A DNA stretch of 64,000 bases from positions 50,895 to 114,894 of IMG/VR virus record IMGVR_UViG_2706796139_000001, one strand, 5' to 3'. Each line of letters begins with the position of its first letter. The first letter of the stretch is position 1. The notes under the pieces are model-generated. The model searched no databases, had not been told where the DNA came from, and was given only the letters and a program-made list of their open reading frames with translations. Position numbers and translations under genes: made by a program. The stretch is from Pseudotevenvirus miller (taxonomy: Duplodnaviria; Heunggongvirae; Uroviricota; Caudoviricetes; Straboviridae). Positions 2,345-51,006 of the stretch are shown piece after piece.

Positions 2345-2707
2345 ATGAAAGCGTATCAAATTTTAGAAGGTTTACATACTGGTACTATCTATCTGGAAGA
2401 AGGAAACGATGTTCGGATCGTAGTATCAAAAACTCTCGAAATGGATTCAGTGATCGGAAAAGCTCGCGTTGTACCATTCGCAAAACGTGAAGTTGATATT
2501 GAGTTTCAACCGACTGTTAAAGTTGAAGGTGGACAGCACCTAAACGTGAATGTGCTACGTCGCGAAACCCTGGAAGATGCTGTGAAACATCCTGAGAAGT
2601 ACCCACAGTTAACGATCCGCGTTTCAGGTTATGCAGTTCGCTTTAATGCACTGACTCCAGAACAACAGCGCGACGTTATCGCCAGAACCTTTACGGAAAG
2701 CATGTAA
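2345..2707 (+). CDS. grcA: autonomous glycyl radical cofactor (GrcA/YfiD-like; T4 Y06I-like)
   Basis: The C-terminus [29 protein letters not shown] is the glycyl-radical motif of PflB/GrcA (RVSGY). Confidence 0.85.
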
Positions 2708-19034: not shown

Positions 19035-19502
19035 TTATCCGTCATAACCGCCACCGCACTTAACCTCACCTTCAATGAACAGTTCGCGGTTGTCTCTCAA
19101 AAGATTGTATTTCTTTTCGAGTTCCGGCCCGAATGCGTCAGCGTCTTCATAATAGCTATAATTATAACAACCGCATTCATCATCCCATTCAGGTTCATCA
19201 CCGCGTTCGTTGAAGTGTACGACTTTGAGATCGTCAACTCCAGACTCTTTCATTTTATCCCAGATATACCGGATGTCAACGCTATGGTAACTGAATGCTT
19301 CAAGGGTGATGTTATCACCATCGATTTGAGGGATACCCCATTTAGGACGTTGGTCATCGGTGATGATATCAAGCAAAGATTCTACGTTTTCGTGTCCGTA
19401 AATCTTCGCGACCTCTTCCTCTTTACCAGGACGAACAAGCCCGATCCCGATAATAAAGCTACTGCTTGAACTGTTACTTACAAAACCAGAACGGATCTTC
19501 AT
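19035..19502 (-). CDS. hypothetical acidic Cys-containing protein, paralog A with N-terminus MKIRSGFVSNSSSSSF
   Basis: 155 aa. The first 16 aa are identical to the 22913..23425 product, but encoded with different synonymous codons. Confidence 0.55.
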   Translation of the reverse strand: MKIRSGFVSNSSSSSFIIGIGLVRPGKEEEVAKIYGHENVESLLDIITDDQRPKWGIPQIDGDNITLEAFSYHSVDIRYIWDKMKESGVDDLKVVHFNERGDEPEWDDECGCYNYSYYEDADAFGPELEKKYNLLRDNRELFIEGEVKCGGGYDG

Positions 19503-20344: not shown

Positions 20345-22564
20345 TTACAGTTTAACTTCTTTTTCTTCCAGGACGATTTCGCAATCGAATGTTGCACCTT
20401 CCCAGAACTTATGCGGGATAATGTCAGTCGCTTTAACCGATACTTTGGTTTCTTCGAAATCCATATCCGCAAACCATGCGTGGCCTACAACGATACCGTA
20501 CATTACACGGCTCAGGCGCTTGTTCAGTGCGCGTACTTCGTTGATGGTTGCCTTTGTTTCTTTATCAAGGTACTCGATTACCTTATCCTTGTCAAGCGCT
20601 GCGAGTTCAGCTTTAACAGCATCGTAAGCCCACAGGATGATCAGGTCGCCGTTGTTCAGTTTCTTCTTACCTTCGGCACGTTTCGCAACGGTTGCCGCTA
20701 CAGCAGGAAGGGAGGAAACACCCTTGATTTTCAGATTCAGTTCTTTCGACATATAAACATCAGTCGAATCGGTACGGGTTACTTTCGGGGAGAATCCATA
20801 ATCACGAATACCCTGTTCAGATAACCATTCACCAGCGGCTTCACCGTATTTCTGTTTCAGACCTTCGGCATTACGTAAACCGATCGCATCGTCACGGAAG
20901 AACTTCATCACCTTCTGGCGACCTTTCAGGATTTCCAGACGGATAGAGTCGTTTACATACTCTTTACCGGAGATCCCGCGAGTCATCGCACGGTTAACCA
21001 GAGGCAGACTTGTAAAGTCAACCAGAACCGACATACGGTCTTCACCGATTTTTGCCAGCGGCTTGATGGTCAAACCAGAAGCGCGGAGGTTTTTCAGTGT
21101 CGGAATATCAGTTTCCAGAGGCAGAACCTTAACGTTTACGATACCGTCTTTAACGATGGTAAAGTTACGCACCTGCTTAGTTTCGATCTGTTCAGGCAGT
21201 CCGAATTCTTTCTGCTTACTTTCTGGGATAGTTACGTAACCAGCCAGATCCGTGTTAATGGAAATGTTCGGACGTGAACTGTTACCGACCAGATGCTTAA
21301 CCGATACTTTGGTTGTAGTCTGGGTAAATTTCGGTGTCCAGATTTCGTGCGTTACCATTTGCGCGGCTAATGCTTTGCGTTCTTCCGGTGTTTTCGCATT
21401 TGCGATCTGTTCTGACAGTTGATCCAGAGTATCATCTTCTTTCTGTACTGTCTGACGGCCTGTACGGTTGTACGCCCAGTGTTCAGAAGACAGGTCGATC
21501 ACTGTGTCAGTTTCTGCCAACAGTTCGAGAGCATCAACCAGAGTGAATGCGTTTTCGTCTGGAACCATGTTGTAATCAACACCCTCAATCAGACGTTTAC
21601 CCGCATCAACTACCGCTTCCGCGATCAGGTCTTTGGCGTTGGAATAATCCTGCTTAGTAAAGCAGTTATCGTATGCCTTAATCAGACGAACGTCACCGAC
21701 TTTTTTCAGCACTTTCCATGCCAGATCAGGGTTCATGGTGTGCAGTGCATGATACAGCACCACGTACAGAACCTGTTCACCTTCCATCGTAGCCGGATCG
21801 AATCCGTCGATGTCGTTGATTGCGTTTTCACCCAGCGCCCAGATGTTTTTGATATGCTCAGGAACCAGCACAACACCGTTTGCAGCGTTAAGGACATACA
21901 CGCGCCCTTCGTCAATGTAGATCGCATGGGTAGCATCACCTACTTTAACTTCAACACGCGCTGATGTTTGAGCGGTAATGATTTCAGCAAATGCTGGCTC
22001 GTATGCGTCGAAACCTTCAACGAATTTATGCAATGCGTTGGTTGCTTCTGCCATTTTTTCCAGCAGAGGACGGTTAACATAGTAACCATATTCCAGGAAC
22101 GCAATGCTGTTAAACGTCAGCGGGAGAACCGCACACGCTTTCAGGATGTCATCGGTACGCCAGCAGTTATCATAACCATCCGTCAGGAAGATCAGGCTGT
22201 TCAGGTTTCCGTTTTCGGATTGCAGGTCAGTTGCAATCTCAGCAGCCAGATTCAGAGGTTCGACGAAACCAGTACAACCAGTAGGTTTCAGATAACGGTC
22301 GATCGCGGTGCAGATATTGGTCAGATCCGATACGTTGCTAACCTTCTCACCACGGAACACAGTACCGTAATCGCCTTTGCTGGAGAAGTACAGGATCGAA
22401 ACAGTATCATCCTGTTTAACCAGGCTTGCCAGATTCGCTTTCAGGTGCTTACGAATTTTCGGCAATTCACTGTACATTGAACCGGAAACGTCGCAAACGA
22501 AAACGTGGTTGGTCGGAGTCGGTTTAGATACTGCATTTTTGAATTCGATATTTGTAATTGACAT
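20345..22564 (-). CDS. von Willebrand factor A (vWA) domain protein, 739 aa
   Basis: N-terminal MIDAS motif VFVCDVSGSMYS ... LFLTDGYDN. The long C-terminal region has no recognisable domain. Not Alt-like or RIIA-like. Confidence 0.8.
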   Translation of the reverse strand: MSITNIEFKNAVSKPTPTNHVFVCDVSGSMYSELPKIRKHLKANLASLVKQDDTVSILYFSSKGDYGTVFRGEKVSNVSDLTNICTAIDRYLKPTGCTGFVEPLNLAAEIATDLQSENGNLNSLIFLTDGYDNCWRTDDILKACAVLPLTFNSIAFLEYGYYVNRPLLEKMAEATNALHKFVEGFDAYEPAFAEIITAQTSARVEVKVGDATHAIYIDEGRVYVLNAANGVVLVPEHIKNIWALGENAINDIDGFDPATMEGEQVLYVVLYHALHTMNPDLAWKVLKKVGDVRLIKAYDNCFTKQDYSNAKDLIAEAVVDAGKRLIEGVDYNMVPDENAFTLVDALELLAETDTVIDLSSEHWAYNRTGRQTVQKEDDTLDQLSEQIANAKTPEERKALAAQMVTHEIWTPKFTQTTTKVSVKHLVGNSSRPNISINTDLAGYVTIPESKQKEFGLPEQIETKQVRNFTIVKDGIVNVKVLPLETDIPTLKNLRASGLTIKPLAKIGEDRMSVLVDFTSLPLVNRAMTRGISGKEYVNDSIRLEILKGRQKVMKFFRDDAIGLRNAEGLKQKYGEAAGEWLSEQGIRDYGFSPKVTRTDSTDVYMSKELNLKIKGVSSLPAVAATVAKRAEGKKKLNNGDLIILWAYDAVKAELAALDKDKVIEYLDKETKATINEVRALNKRLSRVMYGIVVGHAWFADMDFEETKVSVKATDIIPHKFWEGATFDCEIVLEEKEVKL

Positions 22565-22574
22565 TTAAATTTTC

Positions 22575-22913
22575 TCAGTATTTGGTTGTTTTATGTGCGT
22601 TTAAAATGCTTTGGATTTTTTCGGAAATCGTTTGCTGGTCTGGTTCACATTCCAACTTACCGCCAATCGCCTTATAAAAATCTTCAACAGAGTTTACGTT
22701 AAAATCCTGCATATTGAAACCTAAAGAGTACATGTGTGGATTTTTGAATTCGTAAACATCTACATCATACTCGTTAAGGTCGAAACGTTCAATATATTTC
22801 TTCAAAGAAAATAAATCGAACGGTAGCGGGAGGTGCTGTTCAATCGTTACAGGTTCCCCCAGCTTATGCGCTTTTAGTGTTGCCGCTTTCGTATACGTCA
22901 TTTCTTCTTTCAT
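22575..22913 (-). CDS. hypothetical protein (112 aa)
   Basis: ORF between paralog B and the vWA gene. Confidence 0.45.
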   Translation of the reverse strand: MKEEMTYTKAATLKAHKLGEPVTIEQHLPLPFDLFSLKKYIERFDLNEYDVDVYEFKNPHMYSLGFNMQDFNVNSVEDFYKAIGGKLECEPDQQTISEKIQSILNAHKTTKY

Positions 22914-23425
22914 CAGTGGTGACTCTTTGATGTATGTTCAAGGTTGCGGAAAATGTTACCATGTTCCAGTTGGGTTCCGATAGGACCGCATTCATCGGAG
23001 TATGTGAACTCGTAGATAAACACGCCGCCCTGGTTCCCGTACTTCATGTTGTATTCTTCATACAACCACATCTTGATCAGAGCGTCTTTCTCTTCGGTTT
23101 CTAAATCGTACCAATCCCGACCATCATATGCAAGCGCAATTTTAGGATTTGAACGATAACGGGTTTCGGCGCTGTCTTCGGTTTCCCAATCATAACGCTT
23201 ATCATCATAAAACGATTCAAAGCTGTTACCCATATGACCGCCCAAATCACGGTGTACATGGTTGACCACTTCTTCGGATGTCAGCGACGGGGTATAGTAA
23301 CCGCACGTAGGATGACAGTCACCCATCATTTCGCGGAGGTTGTCGATATCAGTCGGATCTTTCGGGAACCGGACAATGAAACTACTTGATGAACTATTGC
23401 TAACAAAACCAGAACGAATTTTCAT
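22913..23425 (-). CDS. hypothetical acidic Cys-containing protein, paralog B with N-terminus MKIRSGFVSNSSSSSF
   Basis: 170 aa. N-terminal 16 aa identical to paralog A. Confidence 0.55.
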   Translation of the reverse strand: MKIRSGFVSNSSSSSFIVRFPKDPTDIDNLREMMGDCHPTCGYYTPSLTSEEVVNHVHRDLGGHMGNSFESFYDDKRYDWETEDSAETRYRSNPKIALAYDGRDWYDLETEEKDALIKMWLYEEYNMKYGNQGGVFIYEFTYSDECGPIGTQLEHGNIFRNLEHTSKSHH

Positions 23426-37553: not shown

Positions 37554-38897
37554 TTAAAAGTTGTCTTCGACGAATGCAGCCAGGCGTCCACGATACACAG
37601 TATTCAGGATTATGTGACTAGCATGGTCATATTCTTTAAGTTTTTCAACAGCATACACAAAGCCGTTGTTAACCGCAGTGTTTCGCGGGTTGTCAATCTG
37701 CTTAATGTTCCCGCATAGTATCAGAAGTGTGTTCTCACCGCAACGGGAAATAATGGATTTTATTTCATGGTTGCTCAAGTTTTGACATTCGTCAACAATC
37801 AGCACGGAACCTTTGCCTGGATCTGGATGTCCGATTGAACGCCCACGGAAGTAATACAGGCTAGGGAACTGCACCACACCTTTTTCCAGAAGTCCTTCAA
37901 CGTACTTGTCAACTTCCGGTTGATCCTTAAACAGAATGTTCAGGCTCGTGATACAAGGCTCAACAGACGGTCGGAGTTTTTCGCCCAGAGTGCCAGGCAA
38001 GAAACCGATTTCACCAGACAGCGGACTATCAGCCTTGACATACATCAGGTTTGCGAAGTGTCCCGCGTTTACCATGTGCATCGCACCAGCAACCGCCAGC
38101 ATTGTTTTACCGGAACCAGCCGCACCCATGATGGTCACAACGTCATTGTTTTTGTCCAGAATAGCATCAACGAATGACGCTTGCAGAGCATCGCGAGGCT
38201 GAATTGTTTTCATCAGCTTACGCTTTAATGCTTGCTCGTGCTTAATAGGCAATACTTCAAGCTGAAACTCTCCAGCAGCAACCACACGCCCCACAATCTC
38301 ACCATGTGACAGAATGTATTGGTTTGGGTAGAAATCTGCGTCAGGAAGCGATGAATACGTTATAATGGCATATGGCCCGACATACTCCAGAACTTCGACG
38401 GTTTCCCAGAACAAAGGCAGTTCGATATAGCCAGAATACAACACATCACTATCTTTCAGCGAGTCATCGCCAGTGTATTGCAGAACCGGACAGCCTTTAG
38501 ACATCGCAATCAACAGCATGTTAATATCGCGAGTCACCAGCGTTGCGCCCTGTTGAATACAAGTTGCAATGATCCGAGCATCTTGTTTATCAAGCGGGAA
38601 TTCTTCTTCACCGACATAATCGACGATTTTAAGCGTTACGCTTTCCGGTACTGCTGGGTTTGACAGGTTTAACGAAACCCCTGTTTGGGTAATTGCTTCA
38701 TAATTTTGTCCCAGGATTGCTTTGGACAATAACCGGATCGCCAGTCTTGCTTCATGAGCGGTTCGCTCTTTGCTTTTCAGGTGATCCAGTTCTTCCATCG
38801 TCGCAGCAGCGATAATGATTTCACTACCCGATTCGATGTAAGAATAGATTGAATATGGGTTCGAGATTAAAACGTTGGTATCTAGAACATATTTCAT
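37554..38897 (-). CDS. phoH: PIN-domain / PhoH-like ATPase fusion (PhoH2/YlaK-like)
   Basis: N-terminal PIN (MKYVLDTNVLISNP...), then Walker A IMGAAGSGKT and Walker B LIVDECQN. About 448 aa from the MKYV start. Confidence 0.8.
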   Translation of the reverse strand: MKYVLDTNVLISNPYSIYSYIESGSEIIIAAATMEELDHLKSKERTAHEARLAIRLLSKAILGQNYEAITQTGVSLNLSNPAVPESVTLKIVDYVGEEEFPLDKQDARIIATCIQQGATLVTRDINMLLIAMSKGCPVLQYTGDDSLKDSDVLYSGYIELPLFWETVEVLEYVGPYAIITYSSLPDADFYPNQYILSHGEIVGRVVAAGEFQLEVLPIKHEQALKRKLMKTIQPRDALQASFVDAILDKNNDVVTIMGAAGSGKTMLAVAGAMHMVNAGHFANLMYVKADSPLSGEIGFLPGTLGEKLRPSVEPCITSLNILFKDQPEVDKYVEGLLEKGVVQFPSLYYFRGRSIGHPDPGKGSVLIVDECQNLSNHEIKSIISRCGENTLLILCGNIKQIDNPRNTAVNNGFVYAVEKLKEYDHASHIILNTVYRGRLAAFVEDNF

Positions 38898-40674: not shown

Positions 40675-40695
40675 AAAAAAGCCCCTTTCGGGGCT
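40675..40695 (-). terminator. rho-independent terminator (minus strand)
   Basis: aaaaaagccccTTTCggggct. Confidence 0.5.
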
Positions 40696-41736: not shown

Positions 41737-42080
41737 TCTATACCTTCCTCTTTTAACACTTCCCAGATCAGCTTATCCATGTGCATGAGATTCCACATAA
41801 CGGAATCATGAGAACCCAGAGATCGAGAGTAGATCACTCCCCATGAACGATACGCCTTTTGGAATTCTGCTGCATTGGTTGCATCATACGGCATATCATC
41901 ACCAGAAGCAATCAACAGTTTAAGAATCATTAAACTATTCAACAATTTTGCGCTGGCATCTTGTGCCTGTATTTTCGAGCAATAATTTTCAATAATTGCC
42001 CTTACCTTTGGTTCAGTAATGCGAGCATTTTCACAACGTTCCCGATATACGTACATGAGTTCATCGATTATTTCTTGCAT
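41733..42080 (-). CDS. hypothetical protein (115 aa)
   Basis: ORF. Confidence 0.45.
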   Translation of the reverse strand: MQEIIDELMYVYRERCENARITEPKVRAIIENYCSKIQAQDASAKLLNSLMILKLLIASGDDMPYDATNAAEFQKAYRSWGVIYSRSLGSHDSVMWNLMHMDKLIWEVLKEEGIE

Positions 42081-42405
42081 ACATTTCCTCTCTTTCTTCC
42101 ATTGACAATCCGCGAATATAGTTCTGTGATTGTCTTTCTGCTTTAGAAACCTCTTGTGCCGTTCGCTGTGAAGAAAGAATATGCGTCACAACTTCATTAC
42201 GAATATGCCACAGATAATCCATCATTGCAAGGTCTTCTTGCGTATGAAAACCTTTAGCATCGCATTCATAACAGATAGCCTCTCTTTCAGCTAATGCCAG
42301 TTGTGCAGATTGCGCGTTGATTGGCATCATACTGTACTTGTCGATCAAACTATCGAGAGTTCGAGGTTTTGCAATATCTATCACTATAGGAACTGGACGT
42401 ATCAT
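42061..42405 (-). CDS. hypothetical protein (114 aa)
   Basis: ORF. Confidence 0.4.
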   Translation of the reverse strand: MIRPVPIVIDIAKPRTLDSLIDKYSMMPINAQSAQLALAEREAICYECDAKGFHTQEDLAMMDYLWHIRNEVVTHILSSQRTAQEVSKAERQSQNYIRGLSMEEREEMYARNNR

Positions 42406-42698
42406 AAGTGACTAATCTCAGCAGATTTCATTTTCATCTGGATAGCCTGAACAGCAAGGTCGCGCTGTTCTTCGGTTTCGTATCCAGCCCACGTTACAGA
42501 ATCTTTATGAACGAAGTGAAACACAATAGCAGGTTTCCACACGTTACCAGGACACGGAACAGTAGCATCAGTTTGTATCCAAGAAACGTGGTCTGTGTTT
42601 ACCGGATAATTGGTACATTCAACACTACCACTATCAACAAACATTGTATGCGGTGCGTACAAACGTGTATATTTTTTGATTCTGGATATAATCAACAT
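42402..42698 (-). CDS. hypothetical protein (98 aa)
   Basis: ORF immediately downstream of the radical SAM gene. Confidence 0.4.
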   Translation of the reverse strand: MLIISRIKKYTRLYAPHTMFVDSGSVECTNYPVNTDHVSWIQTDATVPCPGNVWKPAIVFHFVHKDSVTWAGYETEEQRDLAVQAIQMKMKSAEISHL

Positions 42699-43852
42699 TA
42701 TTTCAACTCCACCGCGTATACATCAGTTTCGGGGGCTTTGTGTACGCGCATATCTTTACCGCATACTGCATAAGCCGGACAGTTACGACAACCGTTATGA
42801 TCCTTATTACCGATCAGTTCATTACGGAACTGTTTGGTTTTCGGATGTTCCCAGATATCCTTAATGAAATCGTTCGCTTCCAGGACATTCAAACCTTCTT
42901 CCCAACCACCTTCAACCCAGCGTTCGGTAAACGAACAAGGGAAGAACTCGCCTTTCTCGTTGATGTACGAGCTAAACATGGTTGCTTCACAATCTTCGGC
43001 ATACTGTTTGTACTGTTCGAAGTTTGGGTGTCCTTCCATCGCTTCAACGAAAGCGGGGGCTGAACAGCTATCGAAACCAAATCCTACACCAGAATCAAGG
43101 CAGTATTCAACAAGTTTTTTGTATTGTTCGCGGGTAACAGTATCCCAGTTCTTACCGCGTCCCTTTTGTTTCAGCCCCAGGAACACAATCGCATTGACTT
43201 GTTTCAGGCGCGGATCATTCTTCACAGCGTCAACCACGTTAAACGCGTCATCATAGGTTTTAGAGCTAACCATGAAATGAAGGTTGATCTGCTGTTGTCC
43301 TGCTTCTGACAGGTTCGCTACCGAGTCGAAAGCGACATCGAAGCCAGCATGTTTATAAACCGATACCGCAACAGCCCCAGCAACCGCAGCCAAACGCGCT
43401 GCAACGTCTTTTGATACATCGGCAATGGTAAGGTTCGGCACAATGCCTTTAGAACGCGCATAGGCCATCATATCGAACATATCAGGGTTTGTTTGTCCCT
43501 GTGCATCAGCACCGAGGGCGCATTGAGTCAACCAGGGCATTTTATCAATGATAGATTTGAACGATTTCAGATCCATATTGTAGCCGTTAGGGTTGTTAGA
43601 CTTGTAACAGAAACCGCATAGCTTACCAGCGGGGCCATTACATTTCGTGGTGATCTCAATATCGAGAATTTCAGGGAAAGGCGCGTATGTCGGATCGCTT
43701 GCAAAGGTTGTACCCCAACGAGCGAATTCGCCAGTGTCAACATTGAAATTGTAGTTGTACCACTTAGAGCGAGCAAAGCGCATATTACCCTGCTGGTAAA
43801 TCATCAGCGAAGGGGCTTTCATTACAGTTTGTGCGCGGTCAATAATATCCAT
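42698..43852 (-). CDS. radical SAM-like enzyme with C-terminal Cys-rich (SPASM/twitch-like) domain
   Basis: DIEITTKCNGPAGKLCGFCY resembles the radical SAM core (T..CN..C.YC) but with Cx7Cx2C spacing. The C-terminal half has 7 Cys, including GCRNCPAYAVCG. Start uncertain (MDIIDRAQ or upstream). Confidence 0.55.
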   Translation of the reverse strand: MDIIDRAQTVMKAPSLMIYQQGNMRFARSKWYNYNFNVDTGEFARWGTTFASDPTYAPFPEILDIEITTKCNGPAGKLCGFCYKSNNPNGYNMDLKSFKSIIDKMPWLTQCALGADAQGQTNPDMFDMMAYARSKGIVPNLTIADVSKDVAARLAAVAGAVAVSVYKHAGFDVAFDSVANLSEAGQQQINLHFMVSSKTYDDAFNVVDAVKNDPRLKQVNAIVFLGLKQKGRGKNWDTVTREQYKKLVEYCLDSGVGFGFDSCSAPAFVEAMEGHPNFEQYKQYAEDCEATMFSSYINEKGEFFPCSFTERWVEGGWEEGLNVLEANDFIKDIWEHPKTKQFRNELIGNKDHNGCRNCPAYAVCGKDMRVHKAPETDVYAVELK

Positions 43853-43862
43853 GATATAGTTC

Positions 43863-44069
43863 TCAAAATTTAACGTGGGATTGGAAAACAGCACGAGCAA
43901 GGTTTTCGCTATCGAACGGGATTGATGTTCCATGGTCTTTGCTGTCAATGTTAACGCGCCAGAACTCACTAGACCCGTTTTTGGTGGAGTAATGCATCAG
44001 CGTTACCGTCTTATTCTTTTCCAGGAAGGTGCGTTTATCAATCTCTGTTTTTATTTCGTGCTGCATCAT
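43863..44069 (-). CDS. hypothetical protein (68 aa)
   Basis: ORF upstream of the radical SAM gene. Confidence 0.35.
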   Translation of the reverse strand: MMQHEIKTEIDKRTFLEKNKTVTLMHYSTKNGSSEFWRVNIDSKDHGTSIPFDSENLARAVFQSHVKF

Positions 44070-44326
44070 TTTACACTCCGTTTCAGTTTACGTTCGTCAG
44101 CCAGTTCTTTTTTGTACGTTTTGATGTACTTCCCGTTAAGGATTCGAAGCTGTTGGAAAACTTTGTTGCACAAAGCACGTTTCGCTTTGTATTCCGGCGT
44201 ATTGCGGATTGATTCGATCGTCATACCCATTTCGTTTTTAGGGTAAGCGCTCAACTCCCTGCCGATCTCTCTATGCCAGTTGCTTAACTGGTCACGCTTT
44301 GCTTTGTACTCTTCAAAAGTTAACAT
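44066..44326 (-). CDS. hypothetical basic protein (86 aa)
   Basis: ORF. Confidence 0.4.
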   Translation of the reverse strand: MLTFEEYKAKRDQLSNWHREIGRELSAYPKNEMGMTIESIRNTPEYKAKRALCNKVFQQLRILNGKYIKTYKKELADERKLKRSVK

Positions 44327-44391: not shown

Positions 44392-44592
44392 TTATTTTCC
44401 GTAAAGAACACAATATTCTTTATATTTTTCACGGGCTTTTTCTTCATTACTAAAGGAAACTCCCATTCCAAAATCAGAACCTTCGAACGTAACATCCCAC
44501 GATTCACACCCATCTTCCGAATAATAGGAAAGTGTTATTTTACGATCTTCAAGAACAAGTTGTTCAACAACAATATCAATTTCAGTAGTCAT
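44392..44592 (-). CDS. hypothetical protein (66 aa)
   Basis: ORF. Confidence 0.35.
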   Translation of the reverse strand: MTTEIDIVVEQLVLEDRKITLSYYSEDGCESWDVTFEGSDFGMGVSFSNEEKAREKYKEYCVLYGK

Positions 44593-45333: not shown

Positions 45334-45424
45334 GATGATTTCCTTTCTCTGTTTCGTTTCGATGTGTGTAATATAACAAAAGCCCTCACCATAGGCAAGG
45401 GGTTTCTTTAACAAAAAGTGCTAT
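45334..45424 (-). promoter_or_regulatory. PeSL-like cassette (minus strand)
   Basis: Reverse complement: aaagaaaccccTTGCCTatggtgagggcttttgTTATATTacacacatcgaaacgaaacagagaaaggaaatcatcATG. Confidence 0.55.
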
Positions 45425-49996: not shown

Positions 49997-50256
49997 AATT
50001 CACCTATTTCTTTCAGTTCAGTTTTGAGTTTATCGAGGGTCGATTGGTATTGTATCATATTTGTTCCGTCAGCGAAACGGTAATAATACAGTGTACGGGT
50101 TTCGTTGATGTCTGCCAGCACTTGCTGATCAAGCGTTGCAGGGTCAATCCCGAACGCCATTTTGAACATCATTTCGGCGCTGTCGGCAAAACCGTGCGCG
50201 TAGAAAGCGAAACCCAGCTTAGGATCGAACTGCAACAAGGATACTTTAGCCATAAT
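49993..50256 (-). CDS. hypothetical protein (about 87 aa)
   Basis: Starts MAKVSLLQFDPK. Confidence 0.4.
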   Translation of the reverse strand: MMAKVSLLQFDPKLGFAFYAHGFADSAEMMFKMAFGIDPATLDQQVLADINETRTLYYYRFADGTNMIQYQSTLDKLKTELKEIGEL

Positions 50257-50539
50257 ATTCTTCGTAGTCCTCGCAGTCTGGGAGATACGTTTCACAGAAC
50301 ATGCACAGCGTGAAGAAAGTAGGCTGGCGAATCCCTGGGTTATCCGGTAGATACATCCAGAACGTGTTAGCAAACACGATGAAGGTTTTCAGGTTTTCGA
50401 CAGTGATTTCGCTGATACCGTCATAACCGGATTGAGCAATTGCACGTTCCAGGGGAACAGGGTATTGCTCGCAATATTCGGCGTAATGTTCACTCAATAA
50501 CATTGAGTTAGCCGCTTTTACAAGATCGATGATTTTCAT
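50246..50539 (-). CDS. hypothetical protein (97 aa)
   Basis: ORF. Confidence 0.4.
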   Translation of the reverse strand: MKIIDLVKAANSMLLSEHYAEYCEQYPVPLERAIAQSGYDGISEITVENLKTFIVFANTFWMYLPDNPGIRQPTFFTLCMFCETYLPDCEDYEEYYG

Positions 50540-51006
50540 GCTTTGACATATTCCACTTTAACAGGTTTGGCGATAAGGTGATCTTTGGTGTAACCTTGTC
50601 CGTCGCAAACATCACAAACGATTTTGAAATCTTCCATTTGGTCGACCCATCCAGAATCAGGCAATCCAGAAGGGTACGTGTTGAAGGTTTTAACACTGTA
50701 TCCTTTTCCATCACACTTAGGGCATTTATACGGGTATTTCGATTTGATCGCACTATACAATTGACCCAGTGTGGTCGAATGATCAAAGTGTATAACAAGT
50801 GCTTCAACGTCAGCAATGCGCAATTCGTTTGGCTTGATCACAGTAAACACATTTGAAGGTATGTTTGGACGCATAATATATTTCTCACTTAAAGAATTTT
50901 TTGATGAAAGAGAGGAACAATCCACCGCCGAACATGATCCAGTATCCCGCGCCGTCACCGTGAAACAGGACGTAAACCGCGACACCATAACAAAAGATTT
51001 CTGCAA
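50536..51006 (-). CDS. protein with two DnaJ-type CxxCxGxG zinc-finger motifs
   Basis: CPKCDGKGY and CDVCDGQGY. Start uncertain. Confidence 0.4.
   Translation of the reverse strand: MQKSFVMVSRFTSCFTVTARDTGSCSAVDCSSLSSKNSLSEKYIMRPNIPSNVFTVIKPNELRIADVEALVIHFDHSTTLGQLYSAIKSKYPYKCPKCDGKGYSVKTFNTYPSGLPDSGWVDQMEDFKIVCDVCDGQGYTKDHLIAKPVKVEYVKA

Follow-up and report, generated by a model that had tools for sequence, protein, structure and literature searches.

A virus-restricted radical SAM enzyme linked to a family of small phage proteins that share an N-terminal tag

ABCD_0162 of Citrobacter phage vB_CfrM_CfP1 (CfP1; KX245890; Straboviridae, Pseudotevenvirus) is a genuine radical SAM enzyme, a twitch-like member of a virus-restricted family for which SAM-cleaving activity is predicted. 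The enzyme is genetically linked to a family of small, otherwise variable proteins that begin with the tag M-K-x-R-x-G-F-V-(S/T)-N-S-S-S-S-S-F, and we infer that this tag is probably the substrate of the enzyme and the site of a post-translational modification. It is plausible that the two form a virus-restricted 'tag and modify' system, in which a maturase of two clades modifies the tag, likely at Ser/Thr9, and which may arm or protect effectors of host takeover or anti-defence. Bacterial RiPP pathways and sulfatase maturation are the settings in which radical SAM/SPASM maturases are known. Our literature search returned no phage-wide protein modification system of the radical SAM/SPASM type; the annotation of the gene was already known, whereas the function of the enzyme and the tagged family were found in no paper in the searchable literature. 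The window analysed here, a stretch of 64,000 nucleotides, is 100% identical to the CfP1 record, and window positions are record positions of KX245890 minus 50894.

A twitch-like radical SAM enzyme

The enzyme gene belongs to a block of leftward-oriented hypothetical genes, all small, which is situated between tk/rI and gene 1 and has a terminator-like hairpin on either side (45383..45401 and 40680..40695). Promoter-like sites showed no enrichment over shuffled sequences. An earlier note on this DNA had described an open reading frame of roughly 385–423 residues, which indeed exists: its longest form (42698..43969, minus strand) opens with GTG and encodes 423 residues, and 384 residues are encoded from the ATG at 43852. 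The ATG is taken as the start on the basis of the GenBank CDS, the point at which the alignment of homologs begins and the end of the upstream gene at 43863, which places the enzyme at 42698..43852 (minus strand). GenBank annotates ABCD_0162 as a "radical SAM protein", and the corresponding family, PHROG 7293, is one of unknown function.

The radical SAM cluster-binding loop, DIEITTKCNGPAGKLCGFCY (residues 64–83; 43604..43663, minus strand), spells C71-x7-C79-x2-C82-Y83, with an aromatic residue directly after the third Cys. Homologs were collected by a word-indexed search (1968 sequences) and aligned in sets of 26 and 92, the latter spanning 46–87% identity. Among the 92, C71, C79, C263, C288, C306 and C358 are invariant and C82 is conserved in at least 90%, and the Cys triad is thus kept across the homologs. 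The length of the loop between C71 and C79 varies, being Cx7 in most homologs, longer in some (such as P0086 and P0067) and a canonical Cx3Cx2C in another, P0091. Because the loop varies and a canonical version occupies the same place, the triad can be identified as the usual SAM-cluster site carrying an insertion, as the earlier note had read it. The GGE position of the SAM-binding motif, at the end of strand 2, is occupied by A112-L-G114-A-D116, in which G114 is invariant and D116 at least 90% conserved (92 homologs); a divergent clade of the family, clade B, has ALGGRGD there.

Profile searches gave a divided answer. The Pfam SPASM model PF13186 matches residues 288–359 above its cut-off (26.0 bits against 21.5; E 1.1e-5), but TIGR04085 reaches 24.8 bits, under its cut-off of 27, and the Pfam Radical_SAM model PF04055 gives no match at E values up to 0.1. 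The PF04055 miss is probably explained by the loop insertion and by sequence divergence; a precomputed PF04055 match exists for one homolog only, P0091, which has the canonical loop. NCBIfam returned only weak, sub-threshold matches (a tungsten-cofactor maturase over the N-terminal part, twitch and SPASM), and a PDB sequence search gave nothing meaningful. The AlphaFold2 model, however, is confident (pLDDT 95, pTM 0.92) and contains the partial (β/α)6 TIM barrel that had been named beforehand as a point on which the assignment could fall. Most of its closest structural relatives are maturases that modify peptides or proteins, with SuiB and SkfB as the top matches.

The C-terminal half contains seven Cys residues (251, 263, 288, 306, 355, 358 and 365), the last three within CRNCPAYAVC (residues 355–365; C355-x2-C358-x6-C365). 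The SPASM domain is defined by a seven-Cys pattern, CX9-15GX4C ... CX2CX5CX3C ... C, which binds two auxiliary clusters. C288-x12-G301-x4-C306 is the SPASM/twitch hairpin signature, and C355, C358 and C365 match Cys 1 to 3 of CX2CX5CX3C; the window enzyme lacks both the fourth Cys and the terminal one and does not show the full seven-Cys pattern. C251, C355 and C365 are not conserved in the alignments of 26 and 92 homologs, and alignment to clade B indicates that the family keeps C358 alone of the second SPASM motif. The seven-Cys domain of the earlier note is thus real in this protein, but only four of the seven are conserved in the family. As judged from sequence, these four conserved Cys outside the SAM site point to a twitch-like, truncated SPASM domain (42758..43066, minus strand), with C263, C288-x12-G301-x4-C306 and C358 as candidate ligands of one auxiliary cluster, as in the twitch subclass. 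The SPASM/twitch-like character claimed for this half is therefore borne out by the PF13186 match and the conserved Cys.

The N-terminal domain (residues 1–60; 43673..43852, minus strand) is all-β, with five predicted strands at residues 8–46 and no helices, and S29, N33, G41, W46-G47 and D53 are conserved within it (92 sequences). Neither Pfam nor NCBIfam gave a match to an RRE in the enzyme, the N-terminal 60 residues of which are modelled as all-β. This domain may be a substrate-docking module.

Linkage to proteins with an invariant N-terminal motif

The four small ORFs flanking the enzyme (42402..42698, 42061..42405, 43863..44069 and 44066..44326) are present as first described, and had been proposed as substrates or partners in a RiPP-like cassette. 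The 98-residue ORF (42402..42698, minus strand; PHROG 11417, of unknown function) is translationally coupled to the enzyme, the stop codon of which overlaps its start codon (TAATG), and the two upstream ORFs of 68 and 86 residues (43863..44326, minus strand) belong to the same transcription unit; all of the flanking ORFs share one terminator-bounded unit with the enzyme. However, each flanking ORF accompanies the enzyme at just 8 of 81 loci, all from the closely related Pseudotevenvirus/Slopekvirus group, whereas the enzyme family spans phages at 36–50% identity. Pfam and PHROGs assign these ORFs only to unknown families or DUF7238, and no motif is shared between them. In Klebsiella phage KLB27 the enzyme has been lost together with the next three CfP1 ORFs (98, 114 and 115 residues), a joint loss that fits a simple block deletion. 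The flanking ORFs are clade-specific neighbours rather than conserved partners, and it is very unlikely that these ORFs of 68–114 residues are the substrates or partners of the enzyme.

A conserved neighbour emerged from systematic clustering; inspection by eye of two neighbourhoods (P0095 and P0012) had revealed no obvious partner. Eighty viral loci encoding relatives at 36–99% identity were fetched, and all ORFs of at least 50 residues within 6 kb of the enzyme were compared by all-versus-all BLASTP over 81 loci. Besides the enzyme and its antisense artefacts, one family alone is widely shared: 229 ORFs in 62 of the 81 loci, all on the strand of the enzyme, which encode proteins that begin with the tag. 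When the enzymes are collapsed at 70% identity, a tag gene is present within 6 kb for 48 of the 60 resulting clusters, and at 60% identity this holds for 37 of 44. ORFs with the strict tag share the strand of the enzyme in 218 cases out of 218. The nearest tag lies downstream of the enzyme at 48 loci and upstream of it at 11, and is no more than 300 nt away in 27 of 59, with some stop and start codons overlapping. Neither a leader protease nor an exporter is conserved over this 6-kb range in the same 81 loci, nor is any biosynthetic gene other than that of the enzyme.

The reverse approach started from the tag. Among at least 120 IMG/VR stretches found by a DNA pattern for the tag alone, 45 contain the enzyme, and at least 64 of 109 contigs with a tag also carry the enzyme; for the other 45 or so, no enzyme was detected among the matches listed. 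In GTDB (185,579 species genomes) the enzyme occurs 27 times, all but one in MAG contigs; the exception comes from a Flagellimonas assembly, in which a 178-kb contig codes for a 94%-identical protein and appears to be phage contamination. Tags are also present at half of the 27 loci. In the isolate Vibrio phage D479, five tagged ORFs lie upstream of the enzyme, all within 12 kb.

Exactly two tagged proteins were found in the CfP1 genome with a tag HMM, in a scan covering all but record positions 50001–50894. The first, ABCD_0115 (155 residues; 19035..19502, minus strand; tag HMM E 1.1e-11), carries the tag MKIRSGFVSNSSSSSF at its encoded N-terminus (19455..19502, minus strand) and is found in 174 phage records, in the same clade as the enzyme. 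The second, ABCD_0120 (170 residues; PHROG 7397; 22913..23425, minus strand; E 2.3e-12), carries MKIRSGFVSNSSSSSF at its encoded N-terminus (23378..23425, minus strand) and is found in 175 records. The enzyme and both of these proteins share the same set of roughly 174 records in the phage collection. About 20 kb separates the two tagged genes from the enzyme gene, as in other close relatives of CfP1. They lie either side of a gene for a 739-residue vWA-domain protein.

The consensus over all family members is M-K-(I/V/T)-R-x-G-F-V-S-N-S-S-S-S-S-F-(I/V)-(I/V), in which R4, G6, N10, S11 and S12 are invariant, as is the Phe7 that follows Gly6, and the motif always starts at residue 1 of the protein. 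It contains no conserved Cys. The codons used at the invariant positions are unconstrained (Ser from both boxes, Arg as AGA or CGN, Gly from all four codons), so selection acts on the tag at the peptide level; this analysis ruled out an RNA- or DNA-level cause of its conservation. A signal peptide or Tat signal was also ruled out, by inspection, the tag being polar after K2/R4 and lacking RR. In the AlphaFold2 model of ABCD_0120, residues 1–10 are an unstructured, free tail and residues 13–20 form strand 1.

Beyond the 16 conserved N-terminal residues, the proteins are variable and partly folded, with a median length of about 130–131 residues. BLAST groups 359 tagged proteins into 134 clusters, of which 99 are singletons, and the protein bodies are acidic (D+E 20.8%). 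Pfam matched no family in 32 diverse members. A word-indexed search with a tagged protein yielded 37 matches, and an exhaustive profile search was needed to recover the family: at least 8446 representatives of 50% identity clusters (E ≤1e-3), with matches from residue 1.

The enzyme family divides into two clades, and the tag varies with them. Clade B, from uncultivated gut-phage contigs, shares 29% identity with the window enzyme and combines Cx7Cx6C-Y and ALGGRGD with a full SPASM motif, CX2CX5CX3C plus the terminal Cys. With a looser tag pattern covering both variants, position 9 is Ser in 384 of 384 tags at clade-A loci and Thr in 64 of 64 tags at clade-B loci; 29 clade-B loci have no tag within 6 kb. 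This split points to a role of position 9 in specificity. The pairing coincides with one deep split in the enzyme tree and may reflect a single evolutionary event.

Proposed modification of the tag

Linkage is not proof of an enzyme–substrate relation, and the enzyme could instead act on a small molecule, nucleotide, DNA or cofactor, as do BtrN, BlsE and MoaA. Its association with the tag would then be indirect: its product might be used or bound by the tagged proteins, or both genes might belong to accessory early-gene cassettes that travel together. Several observations make this unlikely. The top structural matches are the peptide maturases SuiB and SkfB, no further biosynthetic gene is conserved near the enzyme, and the tag variant follows the enzyme clade. 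Moreover, an invariant, unstructured N-terminal motif under selection as a peptide resembles a recognition site for an enzyme. The twitch enzymes BtrN, BlsE, SpeY and MoaA act on small molecules and are encoded in biosynthetic clusters, whereas the phage enzyme is in no such cluster and has a protein family as its sole conserved neighbour.

In our preferred reading, in which the tag is the substrate, the enzyme would carry a [4Fe-4S]/SAM site on the expanded Cx7Cx2C loop and one auxiliary Fe–S cluster in the twitch-like domain. The free N-terminal tail of a tagged protein would dock on the enzyme, possibly on the all-β N-terminal domain. Reductive cleavage of SAM would generate a 5'-deoxyadenosyl radical, which would abstract a hydrogen from a residue of the tag, with Ser/Thr9 as the leading candidate. 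The auxiliary cluster would then accept an electron, yielding either an oxidised residue (a formylglycine-like aldehyde from Ser, a ketone from Thr) or an intramolecular cross-link. Hydrogen abstraction at Ser/Thr9 followed by oxidation or cross-linking is put forward tentatively, the oxidative route by analogy with anSME/AtsB and the twitch dehydrogenases. Apart from the cluster ligands, the enzyme has no conserved Cys, nor is there one in the tag, which disfavours an epimerase with a Cys hydrogen donor and thioether formation.

Glycyl-radical activation is a further alternative. The activases PflA and NrdG are radical SAM enzymes, like the phage enzyme, and are known in T4-like phages; CfP1 itself encodes NrdD/NrdG and a GrcA-like protein. 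The earlier note had suggested the latter as a target, and the GrcA-like ORF (2345..2707, plus strand) is real and contains TIRVSGYAV. Gly6 of the tag could also be considered, given that Arg4 and Gly6-Phe7 are invariant and that K-I-R-x-G-F-V loosely resembles R-V-x-G-Y. However, such activases are small CX3CX2C proteins that lack a SPASM/twitch domain and have an RVxG(Y/F) partner, a description that the enzyme does not fit, and a glycyl-radical activase acting on either target is highly improbable.

Comparison with known systems

The closest known enzymes, SuiB (the maturase that forms the Lys-Trp cross-link of streptide; 5V1Q), SkfB (6EFN), CteB (5WGG) and PqqE (6C8V), are only 15–17% identical to the phage enzyme. 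RiPP maturases have a Cx3Cx2C loop where the phage enzyme has Cx7Cx2C, and in contrast to them it has no recognised winged-helix RRE, an all-β N-terminal domain, no protease or exporter conserved nearby and a family confined to viruses. It has one conserved auxiliary site rather than two, a feature shared with SkfB. The candidate substrates also differ from leader–core peptides, being proteins of 100–200 residues in which the N-terminal motif is invariant but the body varies, and no short leader–core precursor lies beside the enzyme: the linked proteins, of about 130 residues, are 20 kb off in the window. The RiPP-like system suggested in the earlier note looks right as a maturase with linked protein substrates, but the candidates are the tagged family about 20 kb away and not the adjacent ORFs.

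The sulfatase-maturing enzymes (anSMEcpe, 4K36/4K37, and AtsB) also differ from the phage enzyme. They bind two fully Cys-ligated auxiliary clusters, their substrate motif (C/S)-x-(P/A)-x-R is absent from the phage tag, and the tagged proteins, unlike their partners, are not sulfatases. NCBIfam anSME models gave no match to the phage enzyme.

If linkage reflects catalysis, an enzymatic step on a common tag is shared by large phages whose hosts differ widely (enterobacteria, Vibrio and those of uncultivated phages from the gut and the environment), and thousands of otherwise unrelated small proteins carry the target of that step. This would give a first functional handle on phage "dark matter", including PHROG 7293, PHROG 7397 and many orphans, and the 16-residue tag with its enzyme could be used for site-specific protein modification. 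The system is directly testable, as CfP1, RB43, RB16 and KP15 are cultivable phages of Escherichia coli, Citrobacter or Klebsiella and KLB27 is a natural deletion mutant. KLB27 is viable and still has a tagged protein without the enzyme; its loss of the enzyme indicates that the enzyme is accessory under laboratory conditions.

Loss and possible interruption of the enzyme gene

The enzyme gene is not intact in every relative of CfP1. In Klebsiella phage vB_KM5a1-KLB27 (locus L310, PP582754.1 50765..50929), it is reduced to a remnant of 54 amino acids, and the 98-, 114- and 115-amino-acid ORFs, the three that follow the enzyme in CfP1, are absent as well. The 170-amino-acid tagged protein is still present in this phage (86% identity). 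KLB27 is a natural deletion mutant. Other copies may be interrupted: in two genomes of the phages collection, Cronobacter phage leB (H58) and RB43 (H59, AY967407), the match to the enzyme falls in two pieces, annotated as two to three separate genes, and in Vibrio phage D479 the enzyme gene is adjoined by a homing endonuclease gene. The split matches in leB and RB43, together with the abutting homing endonuclease in D479, suggest that some copies carry insertions or frameshifts.

Divergent homologues and homologues in cellular assemblies

A divergent clade of the enzyme is represented by locus L110/L239 (IMG/VR 3300029438_000004) and about 50 related loci (L239–L293). Its members combine a Cx7Cx6C-Y cluster motif with a complete SPASM motif, and their partner is the Thr9 variant of the tag, GFVTNSSSSSF. 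The clade was found in no isolate phage of the phages collection; it sits on contigs of uncultivated phages, apparently from the gut.

Homologues also occur in assemblies attributed to cellular organisms. The bacterial isolate assembly of Flagellimonas marina encodes a copy of the phage enzyme, 94% identical, on a contig of 178,077 bp (NZ_JBHSCL010000010.1; L207). This entire contig is about the size of a Pseudotevenvirus genome and is probably phage contamination of the assembly. A more distant homologue (40% identity) lies on a 793 kb contig of a Promethearchaeota metagenome-assembled genome, binned as an Asgard archaeon (JAHPZA010000009.1; L217), with no tag within 8 kb of it. Either a giant virus or an integrated element may account for that contig, or it may be an artefact of binning.

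Gene surroundings in CfP1

Two small ORFs of 68 and 66 amino acids lie upstream of the enzyme (43863..44069 and 44392..44592, both on the minus strand). They are distant paralogues of each other; PHROG 8584 and PHROG 13594 each match both. A PIN–PhoH fusion ATPase, annotated simply as 'ATPase', is encoded a few kilobases from the enzyme (37554..38897, minus strand); outside close relatives, it is near the enzyme at two loci only.

The tagged genes flank on both sides a gene for a 739-amino-acid protein (20345..22564, minus strand; PHROG 2426, annotated as 'unknown function') that begins with a von Willebrand A domain bearing a DxSGS MIDAS-like motif. The body of the 155-amino-acid tagged protein (19035..19502, minus strand) is weakly matched over residues 64–147 by PHROG 132, 'head-tail adaptor' (E = 3.3e-10), a match of doubtful meaning, and some GenBank records give its homologue this same label.

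The phage also encodes a GrcA/YfiD-like autonomous glycyl-radical protein of 120 amino acids (2345..2707, plus strand), and NrdD and NrdG are encoded at other sites of the genome (ABCD_0245 and ABCD_0254 of the record).
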